DNA from: Sedimentisphaerales bacterium
GTDB taxonomy: Bacteria; Planctomycetota; Phycisphaerae; Sedimentisphaerales; Anaerobacaceae
Assembly: GCA_046760285.1 (NCBI GenBank)
Contig: JBHIDV010000011.1
Location: forward strand, 1-18,934
Length of the DNA stretch: 18,934 nt
Reading direction: 5' to 3'
Shown here: in pieces, positions 557 to 18,091 of the stretch
Layout: every line of letters begins with the position of its first letter
How positions within the stretch are numbered: position 1 is the first letter of the stretch
Made by a program: the position numbers and the translations under genes
Notes under the pieces: model-generated
The model's input: the letters and a program-made list of their open reading frames with translations, nothing else
Databases searched by the model: none
What the model was told of the DNA's origin: nothing

Positions 557-1903
557 GTGGGAGTTCTAAGACTTCTAAGCCCAGCGCTAATACCGGAGAA
601 ACCAGCCACAAGGATACAATGGTTTATTAGACTCCGATGGTTGGCAGCTTCCGGGGTTCTTGTTTTCACAATTGTCGGTCGGTTCCTGCTCCAGCTACAG
701 TTTGAAGTTGCTCCGCTGATATTTGTCTGTATCTGCATAGCTCTATATAACACGGTGTTTTTCATTCTGGCTTATAGAACTCAACCAGAGGGTAAGTGGG
801 GTGAGAAGTTCTCTTTTATACAGGTAGGAACGGACATTTTGGCGCTTACTATTCTTATGCACTTTGGCGGAGGCATTGAAAATCCATTTATTTCCTACTA
901 TTTGTTCCATACAATTATTGCGGCCATTCTGCTGCCATGGTGGAAGGTGGCCTTGCAGGTCCTATTGGCATCGTCTTGTATTGCCGGTTTGGCGATAGCA
1001 GAATTGGTAGGCCTCTTAACTCATCGCCATGTCAGAGGGCTTTTGCCCTTTGAGCTATATGATAACTTCAAGTTTGTGATGGTCACCGTCCTGGCAATCA
1101 TCACCACGCTTTGTATTAGTGCTTTGCTTGCGGCCTCTATATCCCAGAGACTGCACGAAAGGGAAGAGCAACTGTCGGCGGCAAACGAAGACCTCAAAGA
1201 GCAGGACCGCATAAAATCACAATATGTTATGAGGGTAGCACATGACTTGGGCGGACCTGCTGGTACGATCACCAGCTGTCTCAAGTTGGTGACTCTGGGC
1301 CTGACTGGCCCGATCCCTGAAAAAGCCCTGGACATGGTCCAGCGAGCGCAACGTAAGAGCGAATATCTGGGACATCTGATCAGAGACTTGCTCAGCCTTT
1401 CCCGGATCAAGGCCGCGAAAGAAATCCCAAAGACCGCAGTCGAATTGCCGAAAATAATCAATCAAGTGTTCGAGGCATTACAGCCACAGGTAACGGACAA
1501 GAGCCTGGTTCTGGAGCAAAAACTTCCTGCTGCCTTGCCAGCAGTTTACGGCAATGCAGAAGCAATCTACGAGCTTTTCGATAACCTCGTGACAAACGCT
1601 GTCAAATACACGCCAATAGGCGGACGAGTGGAACTGGCCGTGTCGAATACGGGCGATAAAGTTCTGGTTAAGATACAAGACAATGGTGTCGGGATTCCCG
1701 CAGAAGCAGTCCCGCACATCTTCGAGGAGTTTTACCGTGCTGATAATGTTAAGGCCGAGGGTATGGAAGGGACTGGACTGGGGCTGGCGATCGTCAAACA
1801 GATTCTCCATGCGCACGAGGCAAAGTTCTGGGTTGAAAGCGAGCAAGGCAGTGGGACCACGTTTTCATTTACTCTACCGATAATGAGAAAATCGTATGTA
1901 TAG
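557..1903 (+). CDS. Sensor histidine kinase with polytopic membrane N-terminus
   Basis: GTG start after AGGAAAG. The first ~190 aa contain five or six hydrophobic helices. An H-box-like MRVAHDLGGP follows a coiled-coil stretch. The C-terminal HATPase_c domain has an N box (LVTNAVKYT), G1 (DNGVGIP) and G2 (GTGLGLAIV). The stop codon overlaps the next start (ATGTATAG). Confidence 0.85.
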   Translation: MGVLRLLSPALIPEKPATRIQWFIRLRWLAASGVLVFTIVGRFLLQLQFEVAPLIFVCICIALYNTVFFILAYRTQPEGKWGEKFSFIQVGTDILALTILMHFGGGIENPFISYYLFHTIIAAILLPWWKVALQVLLASSCIAGLAIAELVGLLTHRHVRGLLPFELYDNFKFVMVTVLAIITTLCISALLAASISQRLHEREEQLSAANEDLKEQDRIKSQYVMRVAHDLGGPAGTITSCLKLVTLGLTGPIPEKALDMVQRAQRKSEYLGHLIRDLLSLSRIKAAKEIPKTAVELPKIINQVFEALQPQVTDKSLVLEQKLPAALPAVYGNAEAIYELFDNLVTNAVKYTPIGGRVELAVSNTGDKVLVKIQDNGVGIPAEAVPHIFEEFYRADNVKAEGMEGTGLGLAIVKQILHAHEAKFWVESEQGSGTTFSFTLPIMRKSYV

Positions 1904-2948
1904 TGAGAAAAAGATTCAACTGAATGCCCCTGCAGGCAACCTGCCATCCTTCATTGCGGCGGTAGATGCCGGCGCCGATCTGGTGTATATGGGATTCAGG
2001 TCACCAACAAATCTGCGAAATTTGCCCGGCCTGAATTTTTCTGTCGAACAAGCTCAAAAAGCAGTACAATATGCCCACCAACACGGAAGGGGCGTCCATG
2101 TTACCGTGAACACTTATCCTACCGATACCCAACTCAAAGAGTGTTTCCGAGCTGTTGATTACGCTCATGACATTGGCGCCGATGCCGTGATAGCGGCAGA
2201 CTGGGCGGTGCTGGACTATACTCGAAACAGATATCCAGATATGGAGATTCATCTTAGCTGTGTCGCTGGGGTAGCCGATCCTGCTGCCATTCATTTCTAC
2301 CGTAAAGAATTTGGTATAAACTGTGTTGTACTTCCCAGAGTCCTTTGCCTTGAACAAATAGCTGCTCTGCGTAGGCAAACGGATGTGCTCCTGGAGGTAA
2401 TGGTCTTCGGTGTTTTATGTGCCAATTATGACGGTAGGTGTTGTCTGTCGTCTTTCATCACCGGAGCCAGCGCACACAGTATCGGCGCCTGTGCGCCAGC
2501 AGAATTTGTGCAGTTCAAAGAAACTGAGGAAGGTCGCCTAAGTCTGAAGCTCAATGGCATCGTCATCAACAGCTTTGCCGCCACGGAAAAGCATACGTAT
2601 CCAACGCCATGCAAAGGAAAGTATTATAATCCTGCTGTGGGTCGCTGGCTGCACGCTTTTCAGGACCCTTGTTGCCTCAACGCTTTGTCCGTCTTGGGCA
2701 AACTCGCAGCAGCCGGCGTAGACATAGTGAAAATTGAAGGCAGGCAAAGGTCGCTGGCATACATTCAGTTAGTTACAAGCGCCTGGCGCGAGGCGATCGA
2801 TTCACTCAGTCAACGAGAAAACTTTGACCCCCAGAAACATAAGGGACCCCAGCCGAAAAAGATGTCGGCTGGGAGCCCTAAAAATATGTCGCTGGACTCT
2901 ATCCTGGAGGGGACGGCAGGCTCGCTTGGAGCACTTGGTAGAGGTTAG
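1896..2948 (+). CDS. Peptidase U32 family protein, UbiU-like O2-independent hydroxylase subunit
   Basis: The N-terminus IQLNAPAGNLPSFIAAVDAGADLVYMG matches the hallmark ELLAPAGN...DAVY start of U32 proteins. Four Cys residues spaced C-x6-C-x16-C-x39-C match, from memory, the 4Fe-4S ligands C169/C176/C193/C232 of E. coli UbiU. The C-terminal tail carries an in-frame 36-nt palindromic element (2843-2878). Confidence 0.8.
   Translation: MYSEKKIQLNAPAGNLPSFIAAVDAGADLVYMGFRSPTNLRNLPGLNFSVEQAQKAVQYAHQHGRGVHVTVNTYPTDTQLKECFRAVDYAHDIGADAVIAADWAVLDYTRNRYPDMEIHLSCVAGVADPAAIHFYRKEFGINCVVLPRVLCLEQIAALRRQTDVLLEVMVFGVLCANYDGRCCLSSFITGASAHSIGACAPAEFVQFKETEEGRLSLKLNGIVINSFAATEKHTYPTPCKGKYYNPAVGRWLHAFQDPCCLNALSVLGKLAAAGVDIVKIEGRQRSLAYIQLVTSAWREAIDSLSQRENFDPQKHKGPQPKKMSAGSPKNMSLDSILEGTAGSLGALGRG
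2843..2878. repeat. 36-nt GC-rich palindromic element, copy A, inside the UbiU-like CDS
   Basis: GGGACCCCAGCCG-aaaaagatgt-CGGCTGGGAGCCC with complementary arms, flanked by TAA on both sides. It encodes GPQPKKMSAGSP in frame. Confidence 0.85.
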
Positions 2949-2951
2949 AAT

Positions 2952-4385
2952 ATGAAAATATCTGTTGGGCCTGCCCCGTCACATTGGGGTAGGGAAAGAA
3001 TTGAAAGTTTCTATCGTGAGCTGTGCCAAAGTCCCGTGGATTATGTGTATCTCGGAGAGATTGCTTGTCCAGAGCGTTCATGCTTTACACCTGATTTTTT
3101 TAATAGGCTCTGCGATGAGCTTTCACAGGCGGGCAAAAAGGTGTACGCATCCTCGTTAATCCTCGTTAGAGATGAGAAGCAATATCGTGCCTTTGAAGAG
3201 ATGGCACAACGATTACAGCGTGTAGAGATCAATAGCCCTGCGTTTCTGGGCCTCGCCCGGCGCTGGCCTTGCGTGACCGGCACGTTTCTTAACGTATATA
3301 ACTCAGCCGCTGTGAATATTCTGGCAAAACATATGGTTGAAAGGATAGTATTATCTCCTGAACTTAGCTTTCAATCAATCACCTCCATTACCAAGAGGTG
3401 CACAGTGGCCACGGAGCTTATAGTCCACGGATACGTACCAATTGCGATGTCCGGCACTTGCCAGACGGCACGCTCACTCGGACAGAATGGCCACGGATGT
3501 GGAAAGTCCTGTCAGTGTTATCCCGAAGGAATGGTATTAATGGCAGGTGACCGGTCTCTGTTTCGTATTGAGGGACCACAGACACTCTCAGCCGCAATCT
3601 ATTGCCTGGTAGAGTATCTGCCGTGGTTGGAAAAGGCAGGCATCGATACAATACGCATACTGCCTCAGTGGAATCATACTGGTCGTATTGTGAATATCTA
3701 TCGGGATGTGTTGCATAATCGCAGAGATTGTCGAGATGCCGTAGAAGAGCTAAAAGCAATTACGCCGGTGGAACTCTGCAATGGTTGGCTCTTAGGCAAA
3801 GCTGGGTGGCTTTATGAATCACCAGACAGAACTCAGAAGTCAGAAGACAGAAATCAGAAAACAGAAGTCAGAAATCAGAAGTCAGAAGTCCGTCTTCTGT
3901 CGTCTGTCTTCTGTCGTCTGTCTTCTGTCGTTTGTCCTCTGCCATCTGTCCTCTGTCGTCTGTCCTCTGTTGTCTCTTCGAAGGATTGTCGCCGTGCTTG
4001 GTCTACTAATGACATCATTCGTGAGGTGAATCAGCTTTTAGAGGTAATGCATGATGACCCCCAATTCATCAAGAAGATTGCTGGGTTTAAAGGGGTGGTG
4101 GTTGTGCTTAGTGCCTCAGATACTGGACGAGAGTTCATAATCGAATTAAATAAGCAAGGCGTGCGGGTCCGACCCTATAGCGGCCAGCCCTTCGATGTCA
4201 ATATTCAAGCTACTGAACAGGTTCTTTGGGCGGTCCTCTCAGGTCAGATGGATGCAGACACAGCGTTCTTTAGCGGTAAGGTCCGCATTTGTGGCTCCAT
4301 AGCCACAGCATTTCGTGTTAAAAACAGTTTTCTAAGCCTCCTTCAAAGGCATCTGAGTCAAACCATGAAAGCTAACACAAGTTAG
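2952..4385 (+). CDS. U32 family UbiV-like protein fused to a C-terminal SCP2 (UbiT-like) lipid-binding domain
   Basis: The N-terminus MKISVGP...VDYVYLGEIACPERS parallels E. coli YhbV/UbiV (MKYSLGP...VIYLGEAVCSKRR). The Cys cluster C-x12-C-x3-C (SGTCQTARSLGQNGHGCGKSCQC) plus the N-terminal Cys matches the UbiV 4Fe-4S ligand pattern. The last ~120 aa (VVVVLSASDTGREFIIEL...FFSGKVRICGSIATAFRV) look like an SCP2 sterol-carrier fold. The two parts are joined by a repeat-encoded low-complexity linker. Confidence 0.8.
   Translation: MKISVGPAPSHWGRERIESFYRELCQSPVDYVYLGEIACPERSCFTPDFFNRLCDELSQAGKKVYASSLILVRDEKQYRAFEEMAQRLQRVEINSPAFLGLARRWPCVTGTFLNVYNSAAVNILAKHMVERIVLSPELSFQSITSITKRCTVATELIVHGYVPIAMSGTCQTARSLGQNGHGCGKSCQCYPEGMVLMAGDRSLFRIEGPQTLSAAIYCLVEYLPWLEKAGIDTIRILPQWNHTGRIVNIYRDVLHNRRDCRDAVEELKAITPVELCNGWLLGKAGWLYESPDRTQKSEDRNQKTEVRNQKSEVRLLSSVFCRLSSVVCPLPSVLCRLSSVVSSKDCRRAWSTNDIIREVNQLLEVMHDDPQFIKKIAGFKGVVVVLSASDTGREFIIELNKQGVRVRPYSGQPFDVNIQATEQVLWAVLSGQMDADTAFFSGKVRICGSIATAFRVKNSFLSLLQRHLSQTMKANTS
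3823..3977. repeat. Heptamer tandem array (CAGAAGT-like, ~10 units) followed by its inverted complement (GTCTTCT-like, ~12 units): a long imperfect hairpin inside the CDS
   Basis: Direct reading gives cagacag aactcag aagtcag aagacag aaatcag aaaacag aagtcag aaatcag aagtcag aagtc, then c gtcttct gtcgtct gtcttct gtcgtct gtcttct gtcgttt gtcctct gccatct gtcctct gtcgtct gtcctct gttgtct. The symmetry centre is at ~3890/3891. Confidence 0.9.
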
Positions 4386-4423
4386 CTAATAGAATCAACT
4401 CTTAACATATAAAGGAGACCGAT

Positions 4424-5158
4424 ATGAAAAAAAATAAAAAAACTAATGCTGTACAGTATAGCACAGCGCGCAGGGGCCCATTTGGACGGCGTAAAATGCT
4501 GAAAGTCGGCGCTTTAGGTGCGTTGGCTGGTTACACTGGCACAGCGAAAGCCCTGGCCAGCAGCAAATCCACTATTAAACAAAAACGCTATGCCATGGTG
4601 ATTGATTTGCGAAGGTGTATTGGCTGCCATGCCTGCTCGGTAGCCTGCAAATCGGAGTTTAGCGTGCCTCTGGGGGTATGGAGGTCCTGGGTCAAGCAGG
4701 CCGAACGCGGCAAGTTTCCGAACACTCAGCGTCATTTCCTGCCGCGTCTATGCAACCACTGTGAGTACCCCACGTGCGTAGAGGCCTGCCCGACCAAGGC
4801 GTCGTACCAGCGGGACGATGGAATTGTTCTGGTCCGCGAAGAGCGATGTATCGGTTGTAGGCTATGTGTTTCAGCCTGTCCGTACAATGCACGCTTCTTT
4901 CACCCAGATGAGAAGATTGCTAACAAGTGTACTTTTTGTGTGCATCGTGTGGACCAGGGCCTGGTCCCCGCGTGCGTCAACACATGCCAGGGCAGAGCAC
5001 GTATTTTCGGTGACCTGAATGACCCAACGAGTGAGGTCGCTAAGCTCGTCGCCAGAGAACCTGTCCAGGTACTCAAACCAAAACTCGGAACTGAGCCCCG
5101 CGTTTTTTATATCGCCTCAGATACAGGGCTGATGGGGCGCATTAGAAAGGAGATCTGA
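4424..5158 (+). CDS. Four-cluster 4Fe-4S ferredoxin-type electron-transfer subunit of a molybdopterin oxidoreductase (TtrB/PsrB/PhsB-like) with Tat signal
   Basis: Strong SD AAAGGAGA. A twin-arginine motif GRRKMLKVGALGALA precedes an AxA cleavage site. There are four ferredoxin Cys clusters: CIGCHACSVAC, CNHCEYPTCVEACP, CIGCRLCVSACP and CTFC...C...C. Confidence 0.85.
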   Translation: MKKNKKTNAVQYSTARRGPFGRRKMLKVGALGALAGYTGTAKALASSKSTIKQKRYAMVIDLRRCIGCHACSVACKSEFSVPLGVWRSWVKQAERGKFPNTQRHFLPRLCNHCEYPTCVEACPTKASYQRDDGIVLVREERCIGCRLCVSACPYNARFFHPDEKIANKCTFCVHRVDQGLVPACVNTCQGRARIFGDLNDPTSEVAKLVAREPVQVLKPKLGTEPRVFYIASDTGLMGRIRKEI

Positions 5159-5159
5159 A

Positions 5160-6023
5160 ATGGAACAAGTAATCTATTACAATATCCACCACCATGAGGC
5201 AATGGGTCCACTAATTGTTCTGTACTTTTTCCTGAGTGGTTTAGGGGCGGGTGCTTTTCTGACGGCGGTGGGCTTGCAAATTTTCGGCAGCGAAAAGTAC
5301 GAAAAAATCGCCAGAACTGCTGCCATTGCCGCACCTGTCATGCTTATTCCGGGGCTGCTATGCCTTCTTTTGGACCTGGGTAAGCCTTTGCGGTTTCTCA
5401 ACCTGTTTTTTTACTTCAATCCCTCCAGCGTTGCTTCTTGGGGGGTGTGGATAATAAATATCTTCTTGGTGATTTCTGTGCTCTACGCATTTTCGCACGT
5501 GATAGGCAAAGCCCAAAGAGCAAAGCCGTTAGCCTATCTGGGCCTCGTTTTTGCCTTGGCAGTAGGGTTTTACTCTGGCCTGCTCTTGTACCAGATGCAC
5601 GGCTATGTTCTATGGCACTCGGCGCTGCTGCCGATGCTCTTTTTAGTCTCCGCTATTGCCTCTGGGCTTGCGGTGGTGCTGCTTCTCTCGGGCTCGGCTG
5701 AGCCTGACCAAACTCGTGTACTTTCCAAAGTTCTCGCTGTCGTGGTCGGTATAGATTTGGTACTGGCTTTGACTGAGGTGCTGACCCTGGCGGTCAGTAG
5801 TGGTGAAAAAGCAGAAATCGCCAATGTCATTCTGTCAGGTGGCTATGGCTTTTTGTTCATCGTGGTATACATAATTGCTGGTTTGGCCCTACCACTGTTC
5901 GTGTTGGTACAGCGGCAGGTGACCCGTAATGTTCAAGTGGGTGCTTGCGTTCTGGTTTTGGTGGGAACTCTGGCCATGCGTTATGTAATTGTGGTGGGCG
6001 GACAAGCTCTGCCGTTAAGTTAA
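5160..6023 (+). CDS. NrfD/PsrC-family integral membrane quinol-interacting anchor subunit
   Basis: Strong SD AAAGGAGAT, starting 1 nt after the previous stop. The protein is highly hydrophobic with ~8 predicted helices, and its length and N-terminus resemble PsrC/NrfD. Confidence 0.8.
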   Translation: MEQVIYYNIHHHEAMGPLIVLYFFLSGLGAGAFLTAVGLQIFGSEKYEKIARTAAIAAPVMLIPGLLCLLLDLGKPLRFLNLFFYFNPSSVASWGVWIINIFLVISVLYAFSHVIGKAQRAKPLAYLGLVFALAVGFYSGLLLYQMHGYVLWHSALLPMLFLVSAIASGLAVVLLLSGSAEPDQTRVLSKVLAVVVGIDLVLALTEVLTLAVSSGEKAEIANVILSGGYGFLFIVVYIIAGLALPLFVLVQRQVTRNVQVGACVLVLVGTLAMRYVIVVGGQALPLS

Positions 6024-6038
6024 TCAGCCGATTGGTAA

Positions 6039-6074
6039 GGGTTCCCAGCGGCAATACATCGCCGCTGGGGTCCC
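6039..6074. repeat. 36-nt GC-rich palindromic element, copy B, intergenic and in inverted orientation
   Basis: GGGTTCCCAGCGGC-aatacatc-GCCGCTGGGGTCCC flanked by TAA/TAA. It lies between the NrfD-like stop and the catalytic-subunit RBS. Confidence 0.85.
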
Positions 6075-6093
6075 TAATGAAAGGGAAAGAACC

Positions 6094-8631
6094 ATGTCAA
6101 ATATAACACGACGTGATTTCTTAAAGCTGGGCACGGCCAGCTCAACTCTCGCTGCTGCCGGGCTGGGTGCGGGAGCTACCCTTGCTGGCAGTATCAAGCT
6201 GACTGAAGGGGGTAGGAACTTTTCGGTCCGAACTGGTAAACAGCTAAAAGCCATCCCCTCGGCTTGCTGGCAATGCGTGACTCGTGATGGGATTATTGGA
6301 TACGTGGAAGATGGACGCCTGGTCAAAATCGAGGGCAATCCTAAGCTGCCTCGCACCAATGGCAAGCTTTGCTCCCGTGGCCAAGCTGGAACCAATATAC
6401 TTTACAACCCAGACCGTCTCCTCCATCCTTACAAACGTGTGGGTAAGCGTGGAGAGGGAAAATGGCAGCAAATATCGTGGGAGCAGGCCCTGGACCTGCT
6501 CGTCAACGGAGGCGAGATAGCCGGGCATAAGGTTAAAGGTCTGAAAACCCTTCTCGACGAGGGACACCCCGAAAAATTCATGTTCCACTATGGCCGGATG
6601 AAGGGCAGCGATAGCAAAATCATCAAAGACTACTTTCTGGCCGCATACGGCACTGGGACCGTTGGTAACCACACAGGCATTTGCGAGTCTGCCAAATGGA
6701 CGGCTCACGAGCTTACCTGGGGCAGCCACTATGACAACTGGGATTTTGAGAATACAAAGTTTATCCTGAACTTTGGAAGCAATGTTTTAGAGTGCCATAC
6801 CAATCATGTGCCTGAAGCACAGCGGTGCATCGACGCGATGGCAAAAGGTGTCCCCATGTACACTTTCGATGTGCGTCTGTCCAACACAGCAGCCAAGTCT
6901 ACGGAGTGGATTCCTATCAAGCCTGGCACGGACCTTGCGGTTGTCCTTGCTATGTGCAACGTCCTTCTGCAGAACGGCATTTGTGACAAGCAGTTCATCG
7001 AGACTTATACAAACGTAACTTGTGACGAACTAAAGAGCCATCTGGCGCAGTACACACCGCAGTGGGCCGAGCAGATTAGCGGTGTGCCGGCTGAGAAGAT
7101 CCGTACTATCGCCCTTGCTTATGGTCGAACGAAGCCGAGCGTATGTATCAGCTATCGTGGCGCCGTCATGCACTACAACGGTGTCCAAACGGAGCGGGCG
7201 ATACTTATGCTCGAGGCAATCGCCGGCAATATCGACTGTCCCGGCGGCCGCTGTCGGGCCGTGGGTGCAAAGTGGAAGTTTACCTTTGCCAAACCTACGA
7301 CGAAGGCCAAGAAGCTGCATATCCTTGATGGCGAAGAAGGCGCCTATGCGTATCCGACACACCACACCTCGCACCAAGTTTTCCATATGATCAACAAGGG
7401 CCCGGAACGTCCCGAAATCTACATGATATATTGTTACAACCCTATTTATGTCAATGGTGAGATACAGGCTAATATCGACCTTATGAAGGACGAGCAGAAG
7501 ATGCCTTTCATCGTGGCTGTTGATGTAGCGATCTCGGAAAGTGCGGAACTCGCTGACCTTCTGCTTCCTGACGCAACGTATCTGGAGCGCTGGACTGCTG
7601 ACGATATGGTCTGTCCGAGTCAAGTCCCTGAGTATTATATACGCCAACCACTGGTCAAGCCTTTAGGTGAGGCACGTAACTTTTGCGACGTGGTCTGTGA
7701 CATTGCCAAGCGACTCGGTCTGGACCTTGGATTCAACTCGGCGGAGGAGTTCGTCAGGAACGGCTGTGAGAACACCCCAGGTGTGAAGGAAGCAGGTGGA
7801 TTTGAGTACATGAAGAAGCACGGCGCCTGGTACGATAAGAGTGCCAAGCCGGCCTATTTCAGCCACACCAAAGAGGTGGATGTGACCGGAGCTACCCTGG
7901 ACGAGGCCACAGGGGTTTACTACAAGAAGCAGCCTGAAGACACAGACTATTCTTCACTCGATAGCAAACACGCCGCCGCCCAGTACGTCGCCCAGCGATG
8001 TGGCGACGGAGTTGCGCGAAAGGGTTTCCCACCCGACAAGCACAGATGGAAAACAGGTCTCTTTGAGATCCGCTCGAAAGCGCTCGCTGATAAAAGCTTC
8101 GATGCATTGCCCTCATGGATGCCCATCCCCGAACATGAAAAGATGGGGCCGGATGATTTGATCCTGACCACCTTCAAGGTCAATGTTCAGACCCACTCGC
8201 GCAGTCAGAACTGCAAGTGGCTCACAGAAATATTTCACGAAAATCCAGCGTGGATCCATCCGGCCACGGCAATGGCACGAGGCATCAAAGATGGAGATAT
8301 GATAAAAGTGATCTCGGCGATTGGTGAGATCACTACCAAGGCCAATGTGACTGAAGGTGTTGTTCCCGGAGTTGTAGCGATCTCAAACCACATGGGACAC
8401 TGGGCGTATGGCGGTTACGCCTCCGGTAAGTCATGCCAGGAACTCTTTAGCCACGAATGTGAGATCGACTGCCACCACAAGTGGTGGGGCAAGAATGCCA
8501 AAGACCGAGGTACCAAGGTATGGCGCGACGGAAGGGGCGTACACGTGAACTGGATAATTCCCAACGTTGGTGATCCTATTGGAGGCGCACAACGATGGAT
8601 GGATACAGTTGTGCGGGTGACTAAGGTGTGA
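6094..8631 (+). CDS. Molybdopterin (Mo/W-bisPGD) oxidoreductase catalytic subunit with Tat signal (TtrA/PsrA/SrdA-like)
   Basis: Twin-arginine motif TRRDFLKLG. The N-terminal Fe-S (FS0) motif C58-x2-C61-x3-D65-x27-C93 follows. The 845-aa length fits the DMSO reductase superfamily. The gene lies directly downstream of the ferredoxin and NrfD subunits. Confidence 0.9.
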   Translation: MSNITRRDFLKLGTASSTLAAAGLGAGATLAGSIKLTEGGRNFSVRTGKQLKAIPSACWQCVTRDGIIGYVEDGRLVKIEGNPKLPRTNGKLCSRGQAGTNILYNPDRLLHPYKRVGKRGEGKWQQISWEQALDLLVNGGEIAGHKVKGLKTLLDEGHPEKFMFHYGRMKGSDSKIIKDYFLAAYGTGTVGNHTGICESAKWTAHELTWGSHYDNWDFENTKFILNFGSNVLECHTNHVPEAQRCIDAMAKGVPMYTFDVRLSNTAAKSTEWIPIKPGTDLAVVLAMCNVLLQNGICDKQFIETYTNVTCDELKSHLAQYTPQWAEQISGVPAEKIRTIALAYGRTKPSVCISYRGAVMHYNGVQTERAILMLEAIAGNIDCPGGRCRAVGAKWKFTFAKPTTKAKKLHILDGEEGAYAYPTHHTSHQVFHMINKGPERPEIYMIYCYNPIYVNGEIQANIDLMKDEQKMPFIVAVDVAISESAELADLLLPDATYLERWTADDMVCPSQVPEYYIRQPLVKPLGEARNFCDVVCDIAKRLGLDLGFNSAEEFVRNGCENTPGVKEAGGFEYMKKHGAWYDKSAKPAYFSHTKEVDVTGATLDEATGVYYKKQPEDTDYSSLDSKHAAAQYVAQRCGDGVARKGFPPDKHRWKTGLFEIRSKALADKSFDALPSWMPIPEHEKMGPDDLILTTFKVNVQTHSRSQNCKWLTEIFHENPAWIHPATAMARGIKDGDMIKVISAIGEITTKANVTEGVVPGVVAISNHMGHWAYGGYASGKSCQELFSHECEIDCHHKWWGKNAKDRGTKVWRDGRGVHVNWIIPNVGDPIGGAQRWMDTVVRVTKV

Positions 8632-9524
8632 AAAGACAAAGCCAGAAAAACCCTTTAGGTTGGCCAGCGGTTAGAGAGCAGTGGCGTGAGCAGGCCATCA
8701 GCCGCAGTAATTGCTATGGTCTCTTGGCGCTTGTATTCCGAGGGCCACCGACTCGCGATGTTGTTGAGCGGCTCAGGACCCCATCATTGGCCCAGGCCCT
8801 CAACTACTTAGGATACGACGTCACACAGGAGCTCGCTGGCGAGCTTGAAGCATTGACGGAGCGCCTCCGCCAGCAATATACACGTATCTTTAGTGGTCCA
8901 GGGCCCCACGTCTCCCTCTATGCTTCGGTACACTATGCTAAGGGACCCCAGCCGCAAAAAATGGCGGCTGGGAGCCCTAATGAGGGGCGGTTCTGGGGTG
9001 ATTCTACTGTGTGGGTGAAACACTTTATCGAAACGACAGGACTTTCCTTCACAGGTAACTGGGACAGCATACCCGACCACATAGCAATCGAGCTTGAACT
9101 GATGCAACGGCTTACTGCCTACGAGGCTCAGCTATGGGCAAGCTTACCGGAACAATCGCATAATAAGAACAACATGGGCAAGCAAATCTGCCAATGTCTT
9201 CAGACACAAGAGCAGTTCCTCCGTGACCATCTGTGTTTATGGATTCCTCGATTCTGTAAGTGTGTATTAGAGACATCCACCGGTACTTTTTACCAGAAAA
9301 TGACGAAACTAACGAAGTTTCTCGTCCTCTCTGACGTTGAAAATGTAGTGGCTGCTCAAAGCATACTATCTGACTCATCTACAAAACGTCGACAACGCAA
9401 CGGTCTGTCCCAGCAGGAACCTAATATGGTAGGGACCCCGCTCCGCGGGAACCCAGCCAAGCCATTGGGTTCCCAGCCGCCATTTTTCGCGGCTGGGGTC
9501 CCATTCCAGGAGGAAAAGACATGA
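8628..9524 (+). CDS. TorD/DmsD/NarJ-family redox-enzyme maturation chaperone-like protein, with repeat-derived insertions and C-terminal extension
   Basis: GTG start overlapping the upstream stop (GTGA). Family motifs YTRIFSGPGPHVSLYASVH and IPDHIAIELELM are present. The gene contains palindromic element copy C in frame and ends with a ~70-aa tail encoded by the nested palindrome D. Confidence 0.6.
   Translation: MKRQSQKNPLGWPAVREQWREQAISRSNCYGLLALVFRGPPTRDVVERLRTPSLAQALNYLGYDVTQELAGELEALTERLRQQYTRIFSGPGPHVSLYASVHYAKGPQPQKMAAGSPNEGRFWGDSTVWVKHFIETTGLSFTGNWDSIPDHIAIELELMQRLTAYEAQLWASLPEQSHNKNNMGKQICQCLQTQEQFLRDHLCLWIPRFCKCVLETSTGTFYQKMTKLTKFLVLSDVENVVAAQSILSDSSTKRRQRNGLSQQEPNMVGTPLRGNPAKPLGSQPPFFAAGVPFQEEKT
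8942..8977. repeat. 36-nt GC-rich palindromic element, copy C, inside the TorD-like CDS
   Basis: GGGACCCCAGCCG-caaaaaatgg-CGGCTGGGAGCCC flanked by TAA/TAA. It encodes GPQPQKMAAGSP in frame. Confidence 0.85.
9432..9502. repeat. Nested palindromic element D (short palindrome D1 9432-9454 plus 36-nt copy D2 9467-9502) immediately upstream of the receiver gene RBS
   Basis: D1 is GGGACCCCGC-tcc-GCGGGAACCC. D2 is GGGTTCCCAGCCGC-catttttc-GCGGCTGGGGTCCC. The outer arms 9432-9439 and 9495-9502 and the inner arms 9447-9454 and 9467-9474 are complementary. D2 is flanked by ATT/ATT. Confidence 0.8.
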
Positions 9525-9985
9525 GCAGTCAACCAAAGAAGGTGCTTGTGGTAGATGATGACCAGAGTGCTATAGCGTTCGTGAAGGCTGCGCTCGAGCC
9601 AGAGAAGTACACCGTTATAGGCGCAGGTGACGGACTGGCCGGGCTGGAGCAAGCTCGCCAGGAACCTCCCGACCTTATCATACTTGATGTGTACATGCCT
9701 CGTCAGCCAGGATTTTACACGCTACGGGATATAAAAAACGACCCTAAAACTAAAGATATCCCTGTCATCATGCTTACTGGGGTCGGGGAGCGACTGGGCA
9801 TTACATTTTCTACGCAGGACATCTACGACTTCCTTGGGATTGAGCCTGATGTCTACCTCGAAAAACCGGTTGACCCGCTGTTCTTACGCAGGGTAGCAGA
9901 CAGACTCTCAGGAATAAATTCTGCTGCCAACGGCCGCGCAACCCCAAAGGACGTAAAAGATGGCAACAGCAAGCAACATTCTTAA
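9521..9985 (+). CDS. Stand-alone response regulator receiver (CheY-like REC) protein
   Basis: Strong SD AGGAGGA. It has the acidic pocket VLVVDDD, the phospho-acceptor Asp in IILDVYMP and no output domain (154 aa). Confidence 0.85.
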   Translation: MSSQPKKVLVVDDDQSAIAFVKAALEPEKYTVIGAGDGLAGLEQARQEPPDLIILDVYMPRQPGFYTLRDIKNDPKTKDIPVIMLTGVGERLGITFSTQDIYDFLGIEPDVYLEKPVDPLFLRRVADRLSGINSAANGRATPKDVKDGNSKQHS

Positions 9986-11051
9986 GTGGGCTGGACAACT
10001 CAACTGCAATATACCGTTGTTACATACGAAGATGGCGCAAGCTGCCTGTCGAAAACTGGCGGCGGATAAGAGTCCTCAAGCGGTGCCTTTCTTGGTGTCG
10101 GCCCTTGCCCACAACGATGAACAGGTAAGAATGATTGCTGAGAATGGGCTCAAATCACTGAGTGACCCGCAGGCCATCGATGCTCTTCTATTGGGTTATG
10201 TTTTTACCAAACAAGAGTCTGTCCGCAGAATCCTCACAGCCCTTGGACGTAAAGTGACAGAGGCTGCTGAGCTGCCCGCCCCGTCGTCCGAGTCTGCACC
10301 CGCAACTGCAGTGCAAGCATGGCAATTTCGCAACGATAAGGATGGGTCAATTTTAGCCTTTGTGCCAGAGGGAGACTTCCTGGCCGGTAAGGATAACTTC
10401 TCTGTGCATCTGCGGCCATATTACCTGGCTCTTACGTGTGTGACTAATGCCCAGTATGCACGGTTTCTGACGGAGCGAAGACCAAATTCGGCAAAACTAA
10501 CCAGTTGGATTAATCTCCGGCAGGCCTCGGCTGCTATTCAAAAAGAAGGGCACGCATATCAGGTGGACCCCGAAAAGGCAGAGTTACCGGTCATATGGGT
10601 TACCTGGGAGGGTGCAGCGGCATACTGCAAATGGGCTGGCTTACGGCTGCCCAGCGAACTGGAATGGGAGAAGGGTGCAAGAGGAGTTGACGGAAGGCTG
10701 TATCCGTGGGGCGATGAGTGGGAGGCAGGAAGACCCATGCTATCGGCAGGAGAGCGAAAACCGGAGGAAATAAGTAGTGTTTGGGCACACCCAGCCGCCC
10801 GCAGTCCATACGGACTTTATCAAATGATCGGAAACGTCTACGAGTGGTGCGCCGACCCGTACGAAGAAAATGTATATCAGCGTTATTCACAAGGCGACCT
10901 GAGGCCGCCACTCCAAGGAGAGCACAGGGTGTTGCGAGGCGGACCTTGGCGTTTTGGCACCCCCGCCCATTTGAGGACGGAATATCGCAAGGGTACTGTC
11001 TGGCGCGCCGGTACATTTCTCTGCGGTTTTAGATGTGCCAAGTCTCTGTGA
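9960..11051 (+). CDS. HEAT-repeat plus FGE-sulfatase (formylglycine-generating-enzyme-like, SUMF1/EgtB fold) domain protein
   Basis: N-terminal PBS-lyase-type HEAT repeats (AVPFLVSALAHNDEQVRMIAENGL). C-terminal FGE-family signatures WEGAAAYCKWAG, GNVYEWCADPY and RGGPWRF. The 9960 start overlaps the REC gene by 26 nt, so a later start is possible. Confidence 0.75.
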   Translation: MATASNILKWAGQLNCNIPLLHTKMAQAACRKLAADKSPQAVPFLVSALAHNDEQVRMIAENGLKSLSDPQAIDALLLGYVFTKQESVRRILTALGRKVTEAAELPAPSSESAPATAVQAWQFRNDKDGSILAFVPEGDFLAGKDNFSVHLRPYYLALTCVTNAQYARFLTERRPNSAKLTSWINLRQASAAIQKEGHAYQVDPEKAELPVIWVTWEGAAAYCKWAGLRLPSELEWEKGARGVDGRLYPWGDEWEAGRPMLSAGERKPEEISSVWAHPAARSPYGLYQMIGNVYEWCADPYEENVYQRYSQGDLRPPLQGEHRVLRGGPWRFGTPAHLRTEYRKGTVWRAGTFLCGFRCAKSL

Positions 11052-11082
11052 TGTTTCGACAAAGGCGAAATGAGCAGAAGCG

Positions 11083-12258
11083 ATGTTGCTGTTTGACAAA
11101 GCTCTGAGGATTGTTCTAAAATCCGCTCGCTTCACCGGCACCGAACGTGTTGACATTGCTCATGCGGTGAATCGGATATTGGCGGAGGATGTCAAATCGG
11201 ACATTGACATGCCTCCTTTCAATAAAGCAGCCATGGATGGCTACGCTTGTCGCAGAGAAGACCTTGCCAAGGAACTAACCGTAATAGAAACAATTCCTGC
11301 AGGTGTGTCCCCCAAGCGAACAATCGGGGCGAATCAATGCGCTAAAATCATGACTGGTAGTGTGGTGCCGGTCGGTGCCAACTGTGTGATTATGAAAGAG
11401 TATGCAGAAACTCGGACGAAGAACACTGTTTCTTTTGTCGGCGAAAAGACCGCCGACAACATTTGCCCAAAAGGTGAAGACATCAAGGCTGGTGATGTTG
11501 TCTTGCACAAGGGTACCTTGTTACGTCCACAGCACATTGCGGTTCTCGCATGTGTGGGCAGCGCCCGGCCAATGGTGGCGAAAAGGCCAAAGGTGGGGAT
11601 ATTCGCAACGGGTAATGAGCTGATTGAGCCAGCATCCCAGCCTGGACCATCCCAGATAAGAAACAGCAACAGCTTTCAGCTTGCCGCGCAGGTTGAAAGT
11701 ATAGGTGCGGTTGTAAGAAATTACGGTATTGCCAAAGACACCCACCAGGCTATTGACAATATGTTCAAAAAAGTTGCTGAAGAAAATCACGTTGTCATCG
11801 TCTCTGGCGGTGTTTCGGTAGGTGAATTCGACATTTTACCGACAATTCTTAGGCAAAACAATGTCGAGTTATTGTTCGAGAATATCGCCTTAAAGCCGGG
11901 AAAACCTACGGTCTTTGGCATATCGGAAAAGGCCTATTGTTTCGGCCTGCCCGGAAACCCCGTAGCATCCTTTGTATTATTCGAACTGATGGTTAAACCA
12001 TTTCTTTATAAGCTGATGGGCCATGATTACGCACCGCCTGATATTCAGATGCCTCTTGGAGAATCTATCAAGCTCAAGAAAGTGAAAAGGCAAAGTTGGG
12101 TCCCAGTTGCAATAACAGGGGTAGGCACATTAAAGCCGGTTGAATATCATGGGTCGGCGCACATCGGTGCTTTGTGTAAGGCGGATGGCTTGGTCAGTGT
12201 CGATGTTGGTGTGGCAGAAATTGCAGCGCCAACGGTGGTTCGAGTCAGGCTGATTTGA
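11083..12258 (+). CDS. moeA: Molybdopterin molybdotransferase MoeA
   Basis: The ~390-aa length, N-terminal L.F.EAL-like start and PFNKAAMDGYA motif fit the MoeA/gephyrin-E family. The gene is adjacent to moaA. Confidence 0.88.
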   Translation: MLLFDKALRIVLKSARFTGTERVDIAHAVNRILAEDVKSDIDMPPFNKAAMDGYACRREDLAKELTVIETIPAGVSPKRTIGANQCAKIMTGSVVPVGANCVIMKEYAETRTKNTVSFVGEKTADNICPKGEDIKAGDVVLHKGTLLRPQHIAVLACVGSARPMVAKRPKVGIFATGNELIEPASQPGPSQIRNSNSFQLAAQVESIGAVVRNYGIAKDTHQAIDNMFKKVAEENHVVIVSGGVSVGEFDILPTILRQNNVELLFENIALKPGKPTVFGISEKAYCFGLPGNPVASFVLFELMVKPFLYKLMGHDYAPPDIQMPLGESIKLKKVKRQSWVPVAITGVGTLKPVEYHGSAHIGALCKADGLVSVDVGVAEIAAPTVVRVRLI

Positions 12259-12288
12259 ACGTCAAGCAGCTCTGGTGGTTTGCAGGTC

Positions 12289-13245
12289 ATGCATGTGGAT
12301 GTTGATTATTTGAGAATTTCTGTTACCGACAGATGCAATCTACGGTGTATTTACTGTAATCCTTTAGGCCGTTGCGATTTTATAGAACATAAAGAGATTT
12401 TAAGATTTGAAGAGATATACCGTATTGTCAGACTTTTTGTCGAATGCGGCATCAGAAAGGTTAGGCTTACCGGAGGTGAGCCATTGGTCAGAAGAAATAT
12501 TGTTCAGTTGGTCCAAACACTGGCAGCGATACCACTTGATGATCTGGCGCTTACAACTAATGGAGTGCTTCTGGAACGAATGGCAGAAGAGCTCAAAGCC
12601 GCGGGGCTGAAACGCGTTAACATAAGTGTTGACTCTGCAGAGAGGGAAAGTTACAGACAGATTACCGGCTTTGACTTGTTGCCAAAGGTAACCAAAGGCA
12701 TTTATAAGGCCATAAAAGTTGGTCTCATGCCTGTCAAGACCAACAGCGTCATAATAAGAGACATCAATGTTTGCCAGATATTATCGCTTGCACAGATGAG
12801 TATTTATTTGCCGGTCATGGTCAGATTCATTGAATATTGCCCAGCCTGCAAGCATACGAAGCCAGCGAAATACTATGTACCTAACAGTGAAGTCCGCGAA
12901 ATTATTGAACGCAAATTCGGACCACTTTCAAACCTTTTGGCAGGCGGTACGAATGGTCCAGCTCTTTATTTCAAGATTAGAAATTCAGCCGGGGCCATAG
13001 GTTTCATAAACGGTAGATCTTCGGTATTTTGCCATTCGTGTAATCGGCTTCGGCTGACCAGCGACGGAAAACTCAAACCCTGCCTGTACTCAGCTCACCA
13101 CTATGACTTAAAAAAACTCATCAGAAGCGATGCTACTGACGGACAGATACTGGCTTTGCTAAAAAAAATAATTGCAGAAAAGTCCAGGTTCACAAAGCTG
13201 AATTCGTTTAGAGACGAATTCTCTATGCGCAAAGTTGGAGGTTGA
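12289..13245 (+). CDS. moaA: GTP 3',8-cyclase MoaA (radical SAM)
   Basis: YLRISVTDRCNLRCIYC radical-SAM CxxxCxxC motif and the C-terminal second cluster FCHSCNRLRLTSDGKLKPC are present. The ATG at 12289 follows GGTGG; the ORF track extends the frame to TTG at 12280. Confidence 0.88.
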   Translation: MHVDVDYLRISVTDRCNLRCIYCNPLGRCDFIEHKEILRFEEIYRIVRLFVECGIRKVRLTGGEPLVRRNIVQLVQTLAAIPLDDLALTTNGVLLERMAEELKAAGLKRVNISVDSAERESYRQITGFDLLPKVTKGIYKAIKVGLMPVKTNSVIIRDINVCQILSLAQMSIYLPVMVRFIEYCPACKHTKPAKYYVPNSEVREIIERKFGPLSNLLAGGTNGPALYFKIRNSAGAIGFINGRSSVFCHSCNRLRLTSDGKLKPCLYSAHHYDLKKLIRSDATDGQILALLKKIIAEKSRFTKLNSFRDEFSMRKVGG

Positions 13246-14791: not shown

Positions 14792-14865
14792 TATCTTGCG
14801 GTCTGGTTATGCCTATAATGTGCAAAACGAACTGACGCATCTCCTTAAAAATCTTTTTATATGTA

Positions 14866-14903
14866 GCACGTCCACAGTTTTCTACTGTGGGCGTGCTTTT
14901 TAT
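14866..14903. terminator. Rho-independent terminator hairpin between the convergent porin and flotillin genes
   Basis: gcacgtccacagt-tttct-actgtgggcgtgc is a 13-bp stem with one G.U pair, followed by TTTTTAT on the + strand. Confidence 0.6.
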
Positions 14904-14948
14904 CTATGCTTAACATTCCTGGCACGTGCAGAGCATCATGGTGGCGTT

Positions 14949-16229: not shown

Positions 16230-16291
16230 TGCAACTACCTCCTTTCTAAACGAGGCCACTTACTATTTCAATATCTATATGGATGTGCTCA

Positions 16292-17707: not shown

Positions 17708-17722
17708 ATTTATTTACCTCTT

Positions 17723-18064
17723 TTATCCGATGGCCTTGCTGCCTCGCTCTCCGGTTCTTATCCTTATGCACTCAGGCAAATCTAAGATAAAGATTTTGCC
17801 ATCGCCGATTTGTCCTGTCCATGCGCCTTTGATAATGGCATCTATGGTCGGTTCAACAAAGTCTTCATTCACCGCGATTTCAAGTCTTACCTTCTTCAGT
17901 AAGTTCACTTCCTCTCTTACTCCTCGGTAGGTTTCGGTATAGCCCTTCTGCTCCCCACATCCTACAGCATTGGTAACTGTCATCTTATAGACCTGTGCGT
18001 CATAAAGAGTTTTTTTGACATCAGGCAATTTGTGAGGCTGAATCATTGCGATTATGAGTTTCAT
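17723..18064 (-). CDS. glnK: Nitrogen regulatory protein P-II (GlnK/GlnB)
   Basis: The 113-aa protein has a T-loop [12 protein letters not shown] and sits directly downstream of amtB. SD AGGATGA. Confidence 0.88.
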
Positions 18065-18091
18065 TTTCTCATCCTTTTACCGAAGTTCAAA

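Follow-up and report, generated by a model that had tools for sequence, protein, structure and literature searches.

A UbiU/UbiV/UbiT-like module linked to a Psr/Phs-branch molybdoenzyme and a RegB-like kinase in Sedimentisphaerales: a candidate system for anaerobic quinone tailoring and respiration

What might join an oxygen-independent hydroxylase to a membrane-anchored molybdoenzyme? The question is raised by an 18,934-bp contig from the metagenome-assembled genome of an uncultured, anaerobic Sedimentisphaerales bacterium (Planctomycetota), hereafter the window, which we analyzed together with loci of its relatives. In this contig a string of genes opens with a histidine kinase, and a receiver follows the TorD-like chaperone gene, so that U32-family hydroxylase genes and the genes of a putative reductase lie between the two halves of a two-component system. 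NrfD/PsrC-type anchors exchange electrons with membrane quinones. UbiU-V, together with UbiT, carries out the O2-independent, prephenate-dependent hydroxylations of ubiquinone (UQ) biosynthesis (PMC6747719; PMC10990095). We lean towards the reading that the locus encodes a module for making or tailoring a quinone anaerobically, that this module is coupled to quinol-dependent reduction of an oxyanion or of polysulfide, and that the whole is under quinone-responsive control.

Genes were called from a scan of open reading frames (ORFs) and a Pfam profile search, and families were ranked with NCBIfam models and their equivalog cut-offs. Loci of relatives or homologues are given L-numbers (L001, L009, L097, etc.), and homologues of the Mo subunit are numbered P0001-P0120. 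An initial annotation of the window had proposed eleven genes on the + strand, from the kinase to moaA, and all of them are present with the predicted domains. They are listed here with their two flanking genes:

12-458, + strand: UbiE/MenG-like class I S-adenosylmethionine (SAM) methyltransferase (MT), C-terminal 148 amino acids (aa), cut by the contig start (Pfam Methyltransf_11/25, Ubie_methyltran)
557-1903, + strand: sensor histidine kinase (HK; Pfam 6TM_PilS, HisKA, HATPase_c)
1896-2948, + strand: UbiU-like U32 Fe-S protein, 350 aa (Pfam Peptidase_U32, 166.5 bits)
2952-4385, + strand: UbiV-like U32 protein fused to a UbiT-like SCP2 domain (Pfam Peptidase_U32, SCP2)
4424-5158, + strand: four-cluster ferredoxin subunit (FeS) of the PsrB/TtrB/NrfC/DsrO type (Pfam Fer4_11)
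5160-6023, + strand: NrfD/PsrC-type integral membrane quinol-interacting anchor (Pfam NrfD, 156 bits)
6094-8631, + strand: periplasmic Mo/W-bis(pyranopterin guanine dinucleotide) (bisPGD) catalytic subunit of the Psr/Phs/Arr branch, 845 aa (Pfam Molybdop_Fe4S4, Molybdopterin, Molydop_binding)
8628-9524, + strand: TorD/DmsD/NarJ-family maturation chaperone (Pfam Nitrate_red_del, TorD family)
9521-9985, + strand: stand-alone CheY-like receiver (REC; Pfam Response_reg)
9960-11051, + strand: protein with HEAT repeats and the fold of formylglycine-generating enzyme (FGE; Pfam HEAT_2, FGE-sulfatase)
11083-12258, + strand: MoeA molybdopterin molybdotransferase (Pfam MoeA_N, MoCF_biosynth, MoeA_C; NCBIfam MoeA, 301.6 bits)
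12280-13245, + strand: MoaA GTP 3',8-cyclase, a radical SAM enzyme (Pfam Radical_SAM, Mob_synth_C)
13463-14791, + strand: OprO/OprP-type anion-selective outer-membrane porin (Pfam Porin_O_P, 206 bits)

The two U32 proteins are of the UbiU and UbiV types. The first matches the NCBIfam UbiU model (NF047963) best by far, at 372.8 bits, with TrhP second at 148.5 bits. Compared with UbiU, UbiV, RlhA and TrhP of E. coli K-12 as reference sequences, it scores 279 bits on UbiU at 44.6% identity, versus 102 bits on RlhA and 119 bits on TrhP at 27-31% identity. The second scores 110 bits on UbiV (28% identity) and 22-35 bits on the other U32 references. A neighbor-joining (NJ) tree, built without support values, sets TrhP and RlhA far apart from three sister groups. 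One is the canonical UbiU of Pseudomonadota, another is of Nitrospirota type, and the third unites the window clade with a clade of L008, L095 and L010. The [4Fe-4S] ligands have been determined experimentally as C169, C176, C193 and C232 in UbiU and C39, C180, C193 and C197 in UbiV, in E. coli numbering (PMC6747719). All eight of these cysteines are kept in an alignment of the window and five relatives, and the UbiV-type set, C39...C180-x12-C193-x3-C197, aligns throughout in the protein encoded just after the UbiU-like gene, whose start lies 3 nt past the UbiU-like stop. The SCP2 domain matches the UbiT model alone among the NCBIfam SCP2-family models, and its orthologue in L008, at 49.1 bits, exceeds the UbiT cut-off of 46.9.

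Could the U32 pair instead hydroxylate RNA, as RlhA- or TrhP-type proteins with no role in quinone chemistry? Their U32 family membership and the second rank of TrhP among the NCBIfam matches would allow it. The margin between the UbiU and TrhP model scores, the identities to the E. coli proteins and the position of the window protein within the UbiU group of the tree all speak against such a role, as does the U-then-V gene order with an SCP2 partner, which is the ubiUVT architecture (PMC11707229). By bit score and in the NJ tree the pair falls outside the RlhA and TrhP clades, a placement that the initial annotation had raised as fatal to its own reading. We rejected this assignment and give it next to no weight.

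In the window, the UbiV-like and UbiT-like parts form one ORF:

2952-4385, + strand: UbiV-like U32 domain at aa 1-287; repeat-encoded linker at nt 3817-3987; UbiT-like SCP2 domain at aa 360-458 (nt 4029-4325)

The linker DNA is a 7/14-nt tandem repeat (AGAAGTC and GTCTTCT types) with inverted symmetry that encodes a low-complexity segment, and a sub-threshold Rfam match of its hairpin to mir-641 is spurious. We considered whether the fusion could be an assembly artefact of the 7-nt repeat and judge this unlikely, because L014 and L015 carry the same fusion as a single ORF with unrelated linkers. In L001 and L009 the UbiV-like and SCP2 genes are separate and overlap by 17 nt.

How far does the linkage between these genes and the reductase genes extend? 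L001 (Mo subunit 80% identical) and L009 (UbiU-like protein 66% identical) keep the order MT-HK-U32-U32-SCP2-FeS-NrfD-Mo-TorD-REC-FGE, and the fragments L014 and L015 agree with the window over their extent. The linkage MT-HK-U32-U32-SCP2-FeS-NrfD-Mo-TorD-REC(-FGE) is therefore present in every close relative recovered (L001, L009, L014, L015), and the lists of Mo-subunit and UbiU matches hold eight pairs whose longest contigs are equal in size. NrfD orthologues in these four loci are 66-76% identical, and receiver orthologues 74-81%. MT orthologues of 206-246 aa stand directly upstream of HK or U32 genes in L001, L009, L010, L008 and L095, with identities of 61-62% in L001, L009 and L014.

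In a more distant lineage, the gene set is kept and its order changed. L008 and L097 belong to one 43-kb contig, whose UbiU-like and Mo proteins are 55% and 61% identical to those of the window. Its first part reads MT...DmsA-like Mo enzyme-FeS-TorD-DmsC-U32-U32-SCP2-small peptide-PqqD-radical SAM (rSAM)-MenA-like prenyltransferase-polyprenyl synthase-?-MoeA, and continues, after MoeA, with ...-Porin_O_P-FeS-NrfD-Mo-TorD-REC-RegB-like HK-TatA-TatC-MobA. The U32-SCP2 triad of L008 thus lies between two different molybdoenzyme operons, and in L097 the receiver again adjoins the kinase. A further locus, L095, has the order MT-U32-U32-SCP2-DUF169-PqqD-rSAM-MenA-like-polyprenyl synthase-porin-like-MoeA. 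A genome-contig scan with the UbiU-like protein alone returned two Nitrospirae loci only, which were used as outgroup.

The gene-neighborhood check proposed with the initial annotation therefore came out in favor of the linkage between the U32-SCP2 and FeS-NrfD-Mo genes, in all close relatives recovered and, rearranged, in a distant lineage. The unit so conserved is MT-HK-UbiU-UbiV-UbiT-FeS-NrfD-Mo-TorD-REC(-FGE). It is not the eleven-gene operon first described, because moeA and moaA follow the core in the window contig only and are missing from that position in L001, L009 and L015; a MoeA gene adjoins the U32 cluster in L008/L097 and in L095. GC content is 0.41-0.46 at moaA versus 0.50-0.54 in the core. 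The UbiE-like methyltransferase at 12-458, left out of the original bounds, is part of the conserved unit.

These comparisons bear on the simplest alternative, that two independent modules and their regulators became neighbors by descent in one lineage with no functional coupling. For such an account one can cite promoter and terminator scans that give no proof of a single transcript, the gaps of 38 nt and 70 nt that border the FeS-NrfD pair on either side, and the many Mo-enzyme homologues, the majority, that have no U32 neighbors. It is opposed by the reordered gene set in L008/L097 at the identities given above, by the placement of the U32 and reductase genes between the kinase and receiver of one two-component system, and by the translational overlaps at the HK/UbiU, Mo/TorD and TorD/REC junctions. 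Moreover, FeS, NrfD or Mo neighbors occur in 0/78 metagenomic loci with canonical UbiU (41-50% identity), control loci obtained by a metagenome scan with alignment in which very generic peptide patterns returned mostly canonical UbiU loci. The arrangement, recurring in L001, L009, L014 and L015 and absent from the 78 controls, is more than chance. Retention of the gene set through rearrangement and its position between two-component halves argue for functional coupling, and we hold mere adjacency to be very unlikely.

Which reductase is it? The parts of a Psr/Phs-type enzyme are present: a twin-arginine translocation (Tat)-exported Mo-bisPGD subunit with a Cys ligand, a four-cluster FeS subunit and an NrfD/PsrC anchor, as in PsrABC of Thermus thermophilus (2vpw) and Wolinella and PhsABC of Salmonella, which also give the best Protein Data Bank and NCBIfam matches. 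The catalytic subunit carries the Tat signal SNITRRDFLKLG; among solved structures it comes closest to PsrA of Thermus (2vpw) and ArrA of Shewanella (6cz7), and its Cys197 (nt 6682-6684) aligns with Cys173, the Mo ligand of PsrA. Its NCBIfam scores are 374.3 bits on PhsA (cut-off 694), 279 bits on DmsA/YnfE, 202 bits on ArrA (NF041714, cut-off 1600) and 139.4 bits on TtrA (NF011567, cut-off 1750). Having sought the substrate through NCBIfam, the Protein Data Bank, a plasmid-borne homologue in an Azoarcus arsenic island and published work, we rejected assignment to any characterized enzyme because the ArrA, TtrA, DmsA and YnfE/F scores all lie far below their cut-offs. By these matches the enzyme is a Psr/Phs-branch molybdoenzyme with a Ttr-like gene order, outside every characterized equivalog.

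The label TtrBCA-type, used in the initial annotation, does not hold: PhsA outscores TtrA by 374 to 139 bits, and the likeness to TtrBCA is confined to the B-C-A gene order and the FeS subunit. That subunit matches TtrB best (243.6 bits, cut-off 416), ahead of DsrO (216 bits) and NrfC (203 bits), and bears a twin-arginine signal of its own (GRRKMLKVG), so that A and B both have Tat signals as in TtrBCA. A TtrA-type subunit has ~1020 aa versus 845 aa here, and no TtrS/TtrR-type sensor is found at the window, whereas distant homologues of the Mo enzyme do have PhnD-like/HK/NarL-type sensors. The enzyme also departs from Psr and Phs. Besides the B-C-A order and the Tat signal on B, which is shared with Ttr, Nrf and Dsr, it has an Arg where PsrA has His145 and ArrA has Arg165, an association with an OprO/P-type porin, and an FS0 motif (aa 58-65) that reads C-x2-C-x3-D rather than the canonical C-x2-C-x3-C. 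The Asp recurs at the third FS0 position in 113/120 of the best homologues (P0001-P0120); this suggests that a cluster with an Asp ligand, or one unusual in some other way, is a signature of the family.

The Mo-enzyme family is large and crosses phyla at >=57% identity, with members in Planctomycetota, Aminicenantia, Glassbacteria, Nitrospirae, Deltaproteobacteria and others. Distant members have the operon order Porin_O_P-FeS-Mo-TorD, often with a second outer-membrane barrel, or with a PhnD-like binding protein, an HK and a NarL- or sigma-54-type regulator. In L002, L003, L007 and L097, the FeS/Mo genes are immediately preceded by Porin_O_P genes. The Mo homologues of L002, L003 and L007 have no NrfD, and U32 genes are absent from the same loci; every U32-linked Mo locus has NrfD. 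On plasmid pAZKH of Azoarcus sp. KH32C (59931-65091, L094), a 40%-identical FeS-NrfD-Mo-TorD operon of the same B-C-A-D order adjoins arsA/arsB (ACR3) in an arsenic island and a divergent set of regulators (PhnD-like/HK/sigma-54). The catalytic subunit of this operon scores 176 bits on the ArrA model and is not ArrA/ArxA-like; the operon may encode an uncharacterized metalloid-oxyanion enzyme. The porin in the window and the contexts of L094 and the distant homologues point to an anionic, periplasmic substrate for the Mo enzyme.

A separate observation concerns L002 (13200-14567) and L003 (13216-14616), in which TorD is followed by a 455-466-aa protein that has no Pfam match. Its sequence resembles a beta-barrel of the outer membrane whose C-terminal residue is aromatic, so that two porin-like proteins are encoded in these operons.

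Is there a sign that a quinone is sensed at this locus? RegB senses the quinone pool, and GGXXNPF is its ubiquinone-binding motif (PMC3000548). Taken alone, the membrane domain of the window kinase (N-terminal 205 aa) has just two matches, to the ActS/PrrB/RegB model (E 4.6e-16) and to the RegB model (E 7.5e-11); the whole protein reaches 134.5 bits on a RegB-type model with a cut-off of 350. The motif GGIENPF (aa 105-111, nt 869-889) lies between transmembrane helices (TM) 3 and 4 of the six-TM domain, and the segment MHFGGGIENPF is invariant across the HK orthologues and also in the distant kinase of L097. An Arg in TM1, the counterpart of RegB R31, is kept as well (RLRW). With RegB, PrrB and ActS of Rhodobacter and other Proteobacteria the kinase therefore shares the six-helix membrane domain, GGXXNPF, the TM1 Arg and a HisKA/HATPase core. 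It differs in having no obvious Cys265 redox box and a receiver-only partner rather than RegA, in its non-proteobacterial host, and in being encoded inside the operon that it presumably controls.

The product of the gene after the receiver has the FGE-sulfatase domain and fold named in the initial annotation and is not a formylglycine-generating enzyme, because the two catalytic cysteines are missing: 'WRFGTPAH' aligns with 'LCHDSYC' of S. coelicolor FGE (2q17), where the catalytic copper-binding Cys pair would lie. Orthologues in L001, L009 and L015 likewise lack the pair, and we discarded the enzymatic assignment. The fold alone is common to the window protein and FGE (SUMF1), as in pFGE/SUMF2, PorK and PvdO. 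No N-terminal signal peptide is visible in the window protein, and the L097 lineage has no such gene. The FGE-like gene of L001 is followed by one (14914-15561) that encodes the Pfam pair Put_DNA-bind_N and CoA_binding, which we take to be the architecture of Rex, an NADH/NAD+-sensing repressor; such a gene would fit redox control of the region in that relative.

Together, these features can be arranged into a pathway. A cytoplasmic Fe-S hydroxylase of the UbiU-UbiV heterodimer type, with the UbiT-like lipid-binding SCP2 domain fused to its UbiV-like protein, would hydroxylate the head group of a polyprenyl quinone or quinol without O2, presumably at the expense of prephenate. The UbiE-like methyltransferase would then methylate the hydroxylated head group. 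We envisage electrons running outward, with the NrfD anchor oxidizing the resulting quinol and passing them to the Tat-exported four-cluster ferredoxin and on to the Tat-exported Psr/Phs-family Mo-bisPGD subunit, itself matured by the TorD-like chaperone, MoeA and MoaA. The substrate of that subunit would be an anion that enters the periplasm through the OprO/P-type porin, and the subunit would probably reduce polysulfide, thiosulfate or an oxyanion of As/Sb/Se type. The RegB-type kinase may sense the quinone pool through its conserved motif and signal to the stand-alone receiver, with the HEAT/FGE-fold protein as a putative non-catalytic partner. That relatives keep the gene set in another order suggests that the respiratory module has a quinone of its own.

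Several observations weigh against this proposal. All three parts of the hydroxylase fall short of their equivalog cut-offs: the UbiU-like protein is below the 440 bits of NF047963, the UbiV-like domain reaches 222.1 bits on the UbiV model (NF047965, cut-off 275), and the SCP2 domain, at 42.9 bits on the UbiT model (NF047962), is just below 46.9. Because the cut-offs are not reached, the pair is accurately labeled 'UbiU/UbiV-type'. Menaquinone, for which Planctomycetota are known, is made without ring hydroxylation, so that it offers the hydroxylase no evident substrate; a modified naphthoquinone is a possible product, given the MenA-like prenyltransferases of L008 and L095, themselves sub-threshold matches (110-112 bits vs a cut-off of 277). 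In the kinase, the equivalent of RegB Q38 is Val in all four HK orthologues, and the receiver carries no DNA-binding output domain, with no RegA-type helix-turn-helix partner among the Pfam and NCBIfam matches. Most members of the Mo family, including the NrfD-bearing L006 and L094, have no U32 neighbors, so the reductase in general needs no U32 module. Finally, a 70-nt gap with a stable hairpin separates the NrfD and Mo genes, and promoter-like and terminator-like matches are no more numerous than in shuffled sequence. Because of this last result, we infer co-transcription from spacing and synteny.

A different account of the same genes is that they make the bulk quinone of the cell under anoxia, whether a benzoquinone like UQ or plastoquinone or some other, and that the reductase is a neighbor through shared anoxic induction, the quinone not being specific to it. 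There is precedent in Pseudomonadota, where ubiTUV is co-regulated with anaerobic respiration through FNR (PMC11707229), and in a Desulfobacterota class with a complete O2-independent UQ pathway (bioRxiv 10.1101/2025.09.17.676790). The triad of L008 and L095, with its prenyltransferase and polyprenyl synthase, also has the look of a core pathway, and the Nitrospirota triad adjoins cytochrome b/c genes. Yet the link to this particular Mo enzyme family outlasts rearrangement of gene order, and in L008 the triad is flanked by two different molybdoenzyme operons. No UbiA/UbiD/UbiX/UbiG-type genes are found in the window or in the relatives' loci examined, and the prenyltransferase is MenA-like. 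We consider this account unlikely, if worth keeping in view.

The closest known hydroxylase systems are UbiU-UbiV-UbiT of E. coli, P. aeruginosa and the Desulfobacterota class GWC2-55-46. The window resembles these systems in its adjacent U-then-V U32 genes followed by SCP2, and in an adjacent UbiE-like methyltransferase; Magnetococcia and GWC2-55-46 likewise have loci with linked ubiE. It differs in its Planctomycetota host, its own clade, its scores below cut-off and the UbiV-UbiT fusion of a sub-lineage. Its genes are set inside a molybdoenzyme operon, and a RegB-like kinase takes the place of the FNR sites predicted at the ubiTUV loci of Pseudomonadota. With no ubiA, D, X or G in view at the window, the product may not be ubiquinone, since the relatives carry a MenA-like prenyltransferase instead.

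A further alternative leaves quinones aside as substrate: the U32 pair might hydroxylate another hydrophobic molecule bound by SCP2, an isoprenoid or aromatic lipid, with the respiratory chain (quinone pool, NrfD and Mo reductase) or an upstream Hdr/sulfhydrogenase-like complex taking up the two electrons that U32 hydroxylation must release. Which molecule accepts electrons from UbiU-V is stated to be unidentified (PMC10990095), and a FAD/NAD Fe-S cluster of genes (HdrA2-like, MvhD, ShyB/ShyC-like) stands directly upstream of MT-U32 in L001, L009, L010 and L095. The hydroxylase scores below the UbiU/UbiV cut-offs would also permit another substrate. In contrast, a polyprenyl quinone precursor is the substrate of the closest characterized relatives, the match of the SCP2 domain is specifically to UbiT, prenyltransferase and polyprenyl synthase genes adjoin in relatives, and the kinase has a RegB-type quinone motif. 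To us these points make a non-quinone substrate improbable.

The genes upstream of MT in relatives include FrhB-like, HdrA2-like, MvhD/FlpD, Fe-S and ShyB/ShyC (AsrA/AsrB)-like genes, in the following regions:

L001, 1-3754: Hdr/Shy-like region
L009, 1-7836: Hdr/Shy-like region
L010, 1-9384: Hdr/Shy-like region
L095, 1-9364: Hdr/Shy-like region

Translational coupling is seen in L010 and L095, where only 1-3 nt separate the end of the ShyC-like gene from MT and the overlap of MT with the U32 gene is 8-13 nt; in L008 a ShyC-like gene occurs alone, at the locus edge. These genes are candidates for an electron partner of the U32 hydroxylase or for a link to sulfur metabolism.

Under the preferred reading, of quinone tailoring coupled to respiration, a parallel exists in Wolinella, whose polysulfide respiration uses 8-methylmenaquinone made by radical-SAM C-methylation (MenK/MqnK). 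The concept is alike, a Psr-type reductase relying on a tailored quinone of altered potential; the window would instead use U32-type hydroxylation and class I SAM methylation, genetically fused to the reductase. A bolder version joins all parts. In Sedimentisphaerales and >=1 other lineage, a new isoprenoid quinone, which the MenA-like prenyltransferase of relatives suggests to be naphthoquinone-derived, would be hydroxylated at its head group without O2 by the UbiU/UbiV-type enzyme and then methylated, would serve as the specific carrier of a new Psr-family oxyanion/polysulfide reductase and would be sensed by the RegB-type kinase, while the upstream HdrA/MvhD/sulfhydrogenase-beta-gamma-like complex would be the electron acceptor of the U32 hydroxylases. 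As a whole we rate this version doubtful.

ubiTUV has been reported only in UQ-producing Proteobacteria (PMC6747719; PMC11707229), and was extended in 2025 to one Desulfobacterota class with a full UQ pathway (bioRxiv 10.1101/2025.09.17.676790). Searches of open-access papers and bioRxiv preprints returned nothing relevant on U32/UbiU proteins with a polysulfide reductase or in Planctomycetota, in keeping with the initial view that the combination had not been described as a unit. A UbiUVT-like clade in Planctomycetota and allied uncultured lineages that has no visible UQ genes would widen the reach of prephenate-type O2-independent hydroxylation and hints at an unrecognized quinone. Hydroxylase, NrfD-anchored molybdoenzyme and RegB-like sensor would offer a compact system for the co-evolution of a respiratory enzyme, its quinone and its regulator, and in the Fe-S flavoprotein genes conserved upstream it offers concrete candidates for the acceptor to which U32 hydroxylases pass electrons (PMC10990095). 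The Mo-enzyme family, with its Asp-containing FS0, oxyanion porins and PhnD-like sensors, may matter in the cycling of S, As, Sb or Se in sediments. The interest is mainly for specialists in quinones and anaerobic respiration.

Where does the transcription unit begin and end? The overlap strings quoted in the initial annotation are exact (ATGTATAG at 1896-1903, GTGA at 8628-8631, ATGA at 9521-9524), and the REC and FGE-like ORFs overlap by 26 nt. The accompanying claim that all junctions are gaps of 1-38 nt or overlaps fails for NrfD-to-Mo (6024-6093). One transcription and translation unit agrees with the overlaps and the retained synteny, and receives nothing from the promoter and terminator scan. 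Its proposed bounds need moving at both ends, upstream to take in the cut methyltransferase gene and downstream probably to a point after the porin, which is probably the last gene of the unit. The only strong + strand site of the terminator scan lies 3' of the Porin_O_P gene:

14865-14897, + strand: intrinsic-terminator-like hairpin, 14-bp stem followed by a T-run

A palindromic element of ~40 nt, GGGWYCCCAGCSG-N10-CSGCTGGGRWCCC, also occurs four times in the core, in both orientations, versus 0 expected by chance:

2840-2881, no strand: palindromic element copy 1, similar to repetitive extragenic palindromic (REP) sequences, in frame inside the UbiU-like ORF (fold -26.5 kcal/mol)
6036-6077, no strand: copy 2, in the NrfD/Mo intergenic gap
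8939-8980, no strand: copy 3, in frame inside the TorD-like ORF
9467-9502, no strand: copy 4, in the C-terminal extension of the TorD-like ORF

Each copy folds at -26 to -29 kcal/mol, and the three inside ORFs keep the reading frame. Copy 1 puts the 13-aa insertion 'KGPQPKKMSAGSP' into the UbiU-like protein, whose orthologues have 337 aa versus 350 aa in the window. Aligned with orthologues of 204-237 aa, the TorD-like protein has a 13-aa insertion and a ~50-aa C-terminal extension; the elements account for 'KGPQPQKMAAGSP' and part of the extension. The repeat looks like a REP element or a miniature inverted-repeat transposable element that is tolerated within coding DNA.

Two further gene sets were seen around the U32 genes of other lineages. 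Between the SCP2 and MenA-like genes, L008 (12165-13782) and L095 (12092-14343) carry a set resembling those for ribosomally synthesized and post-translationally modified peptides: a small peptide, a PqqD-like chaperone (best match WgkC) and a radical SAM/SPASM maturase. The peptide has a conserved C-terminus, ...W-x-K-P-x-LEDVSGK-x-MAQPYIRFT; in L095 the longest ORF joins it to the end of the SCP2 frame, and the called SCP2 gene there has 194 aa. In the Nitrospirota-type loci L005 (8389-12244), L096 (8474-12377) and L004, a U32-U32-SCP2 triad with 48-49% identity to the window UbiU-like protein directly follows cytochrome b(C-terminal)/petD-like and FixO-like cytochrome c genes. In the methyl-plastoquinone pathway of Nitrospirota, the enzyme for C1 hydroxylation is reported to be unresolved (bioRxiv 10.1101/2024.07.27.605408), so this triad could be a candidate for it in low-oxygen lineages.

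Within the window, an Rfam scan gave no riboswitch, including no molybdenum cofactor riboswitch, and a tRNA scan found no tRNA. The + strand ORF at 14796-15143 matches no family, overlaps both the terminator and the SPFH gene that follows, and is probably not a gene. The remainder of the contig, on the - strand at 14949-18886, encodes an SPFH/flotillin-like protein, glutamine synthetase (GlnA), a PII protein and part of an ammonium transporter (truncated), ordinary nitrogen-assimilation genes that are unrelated to the U32/Mo module.

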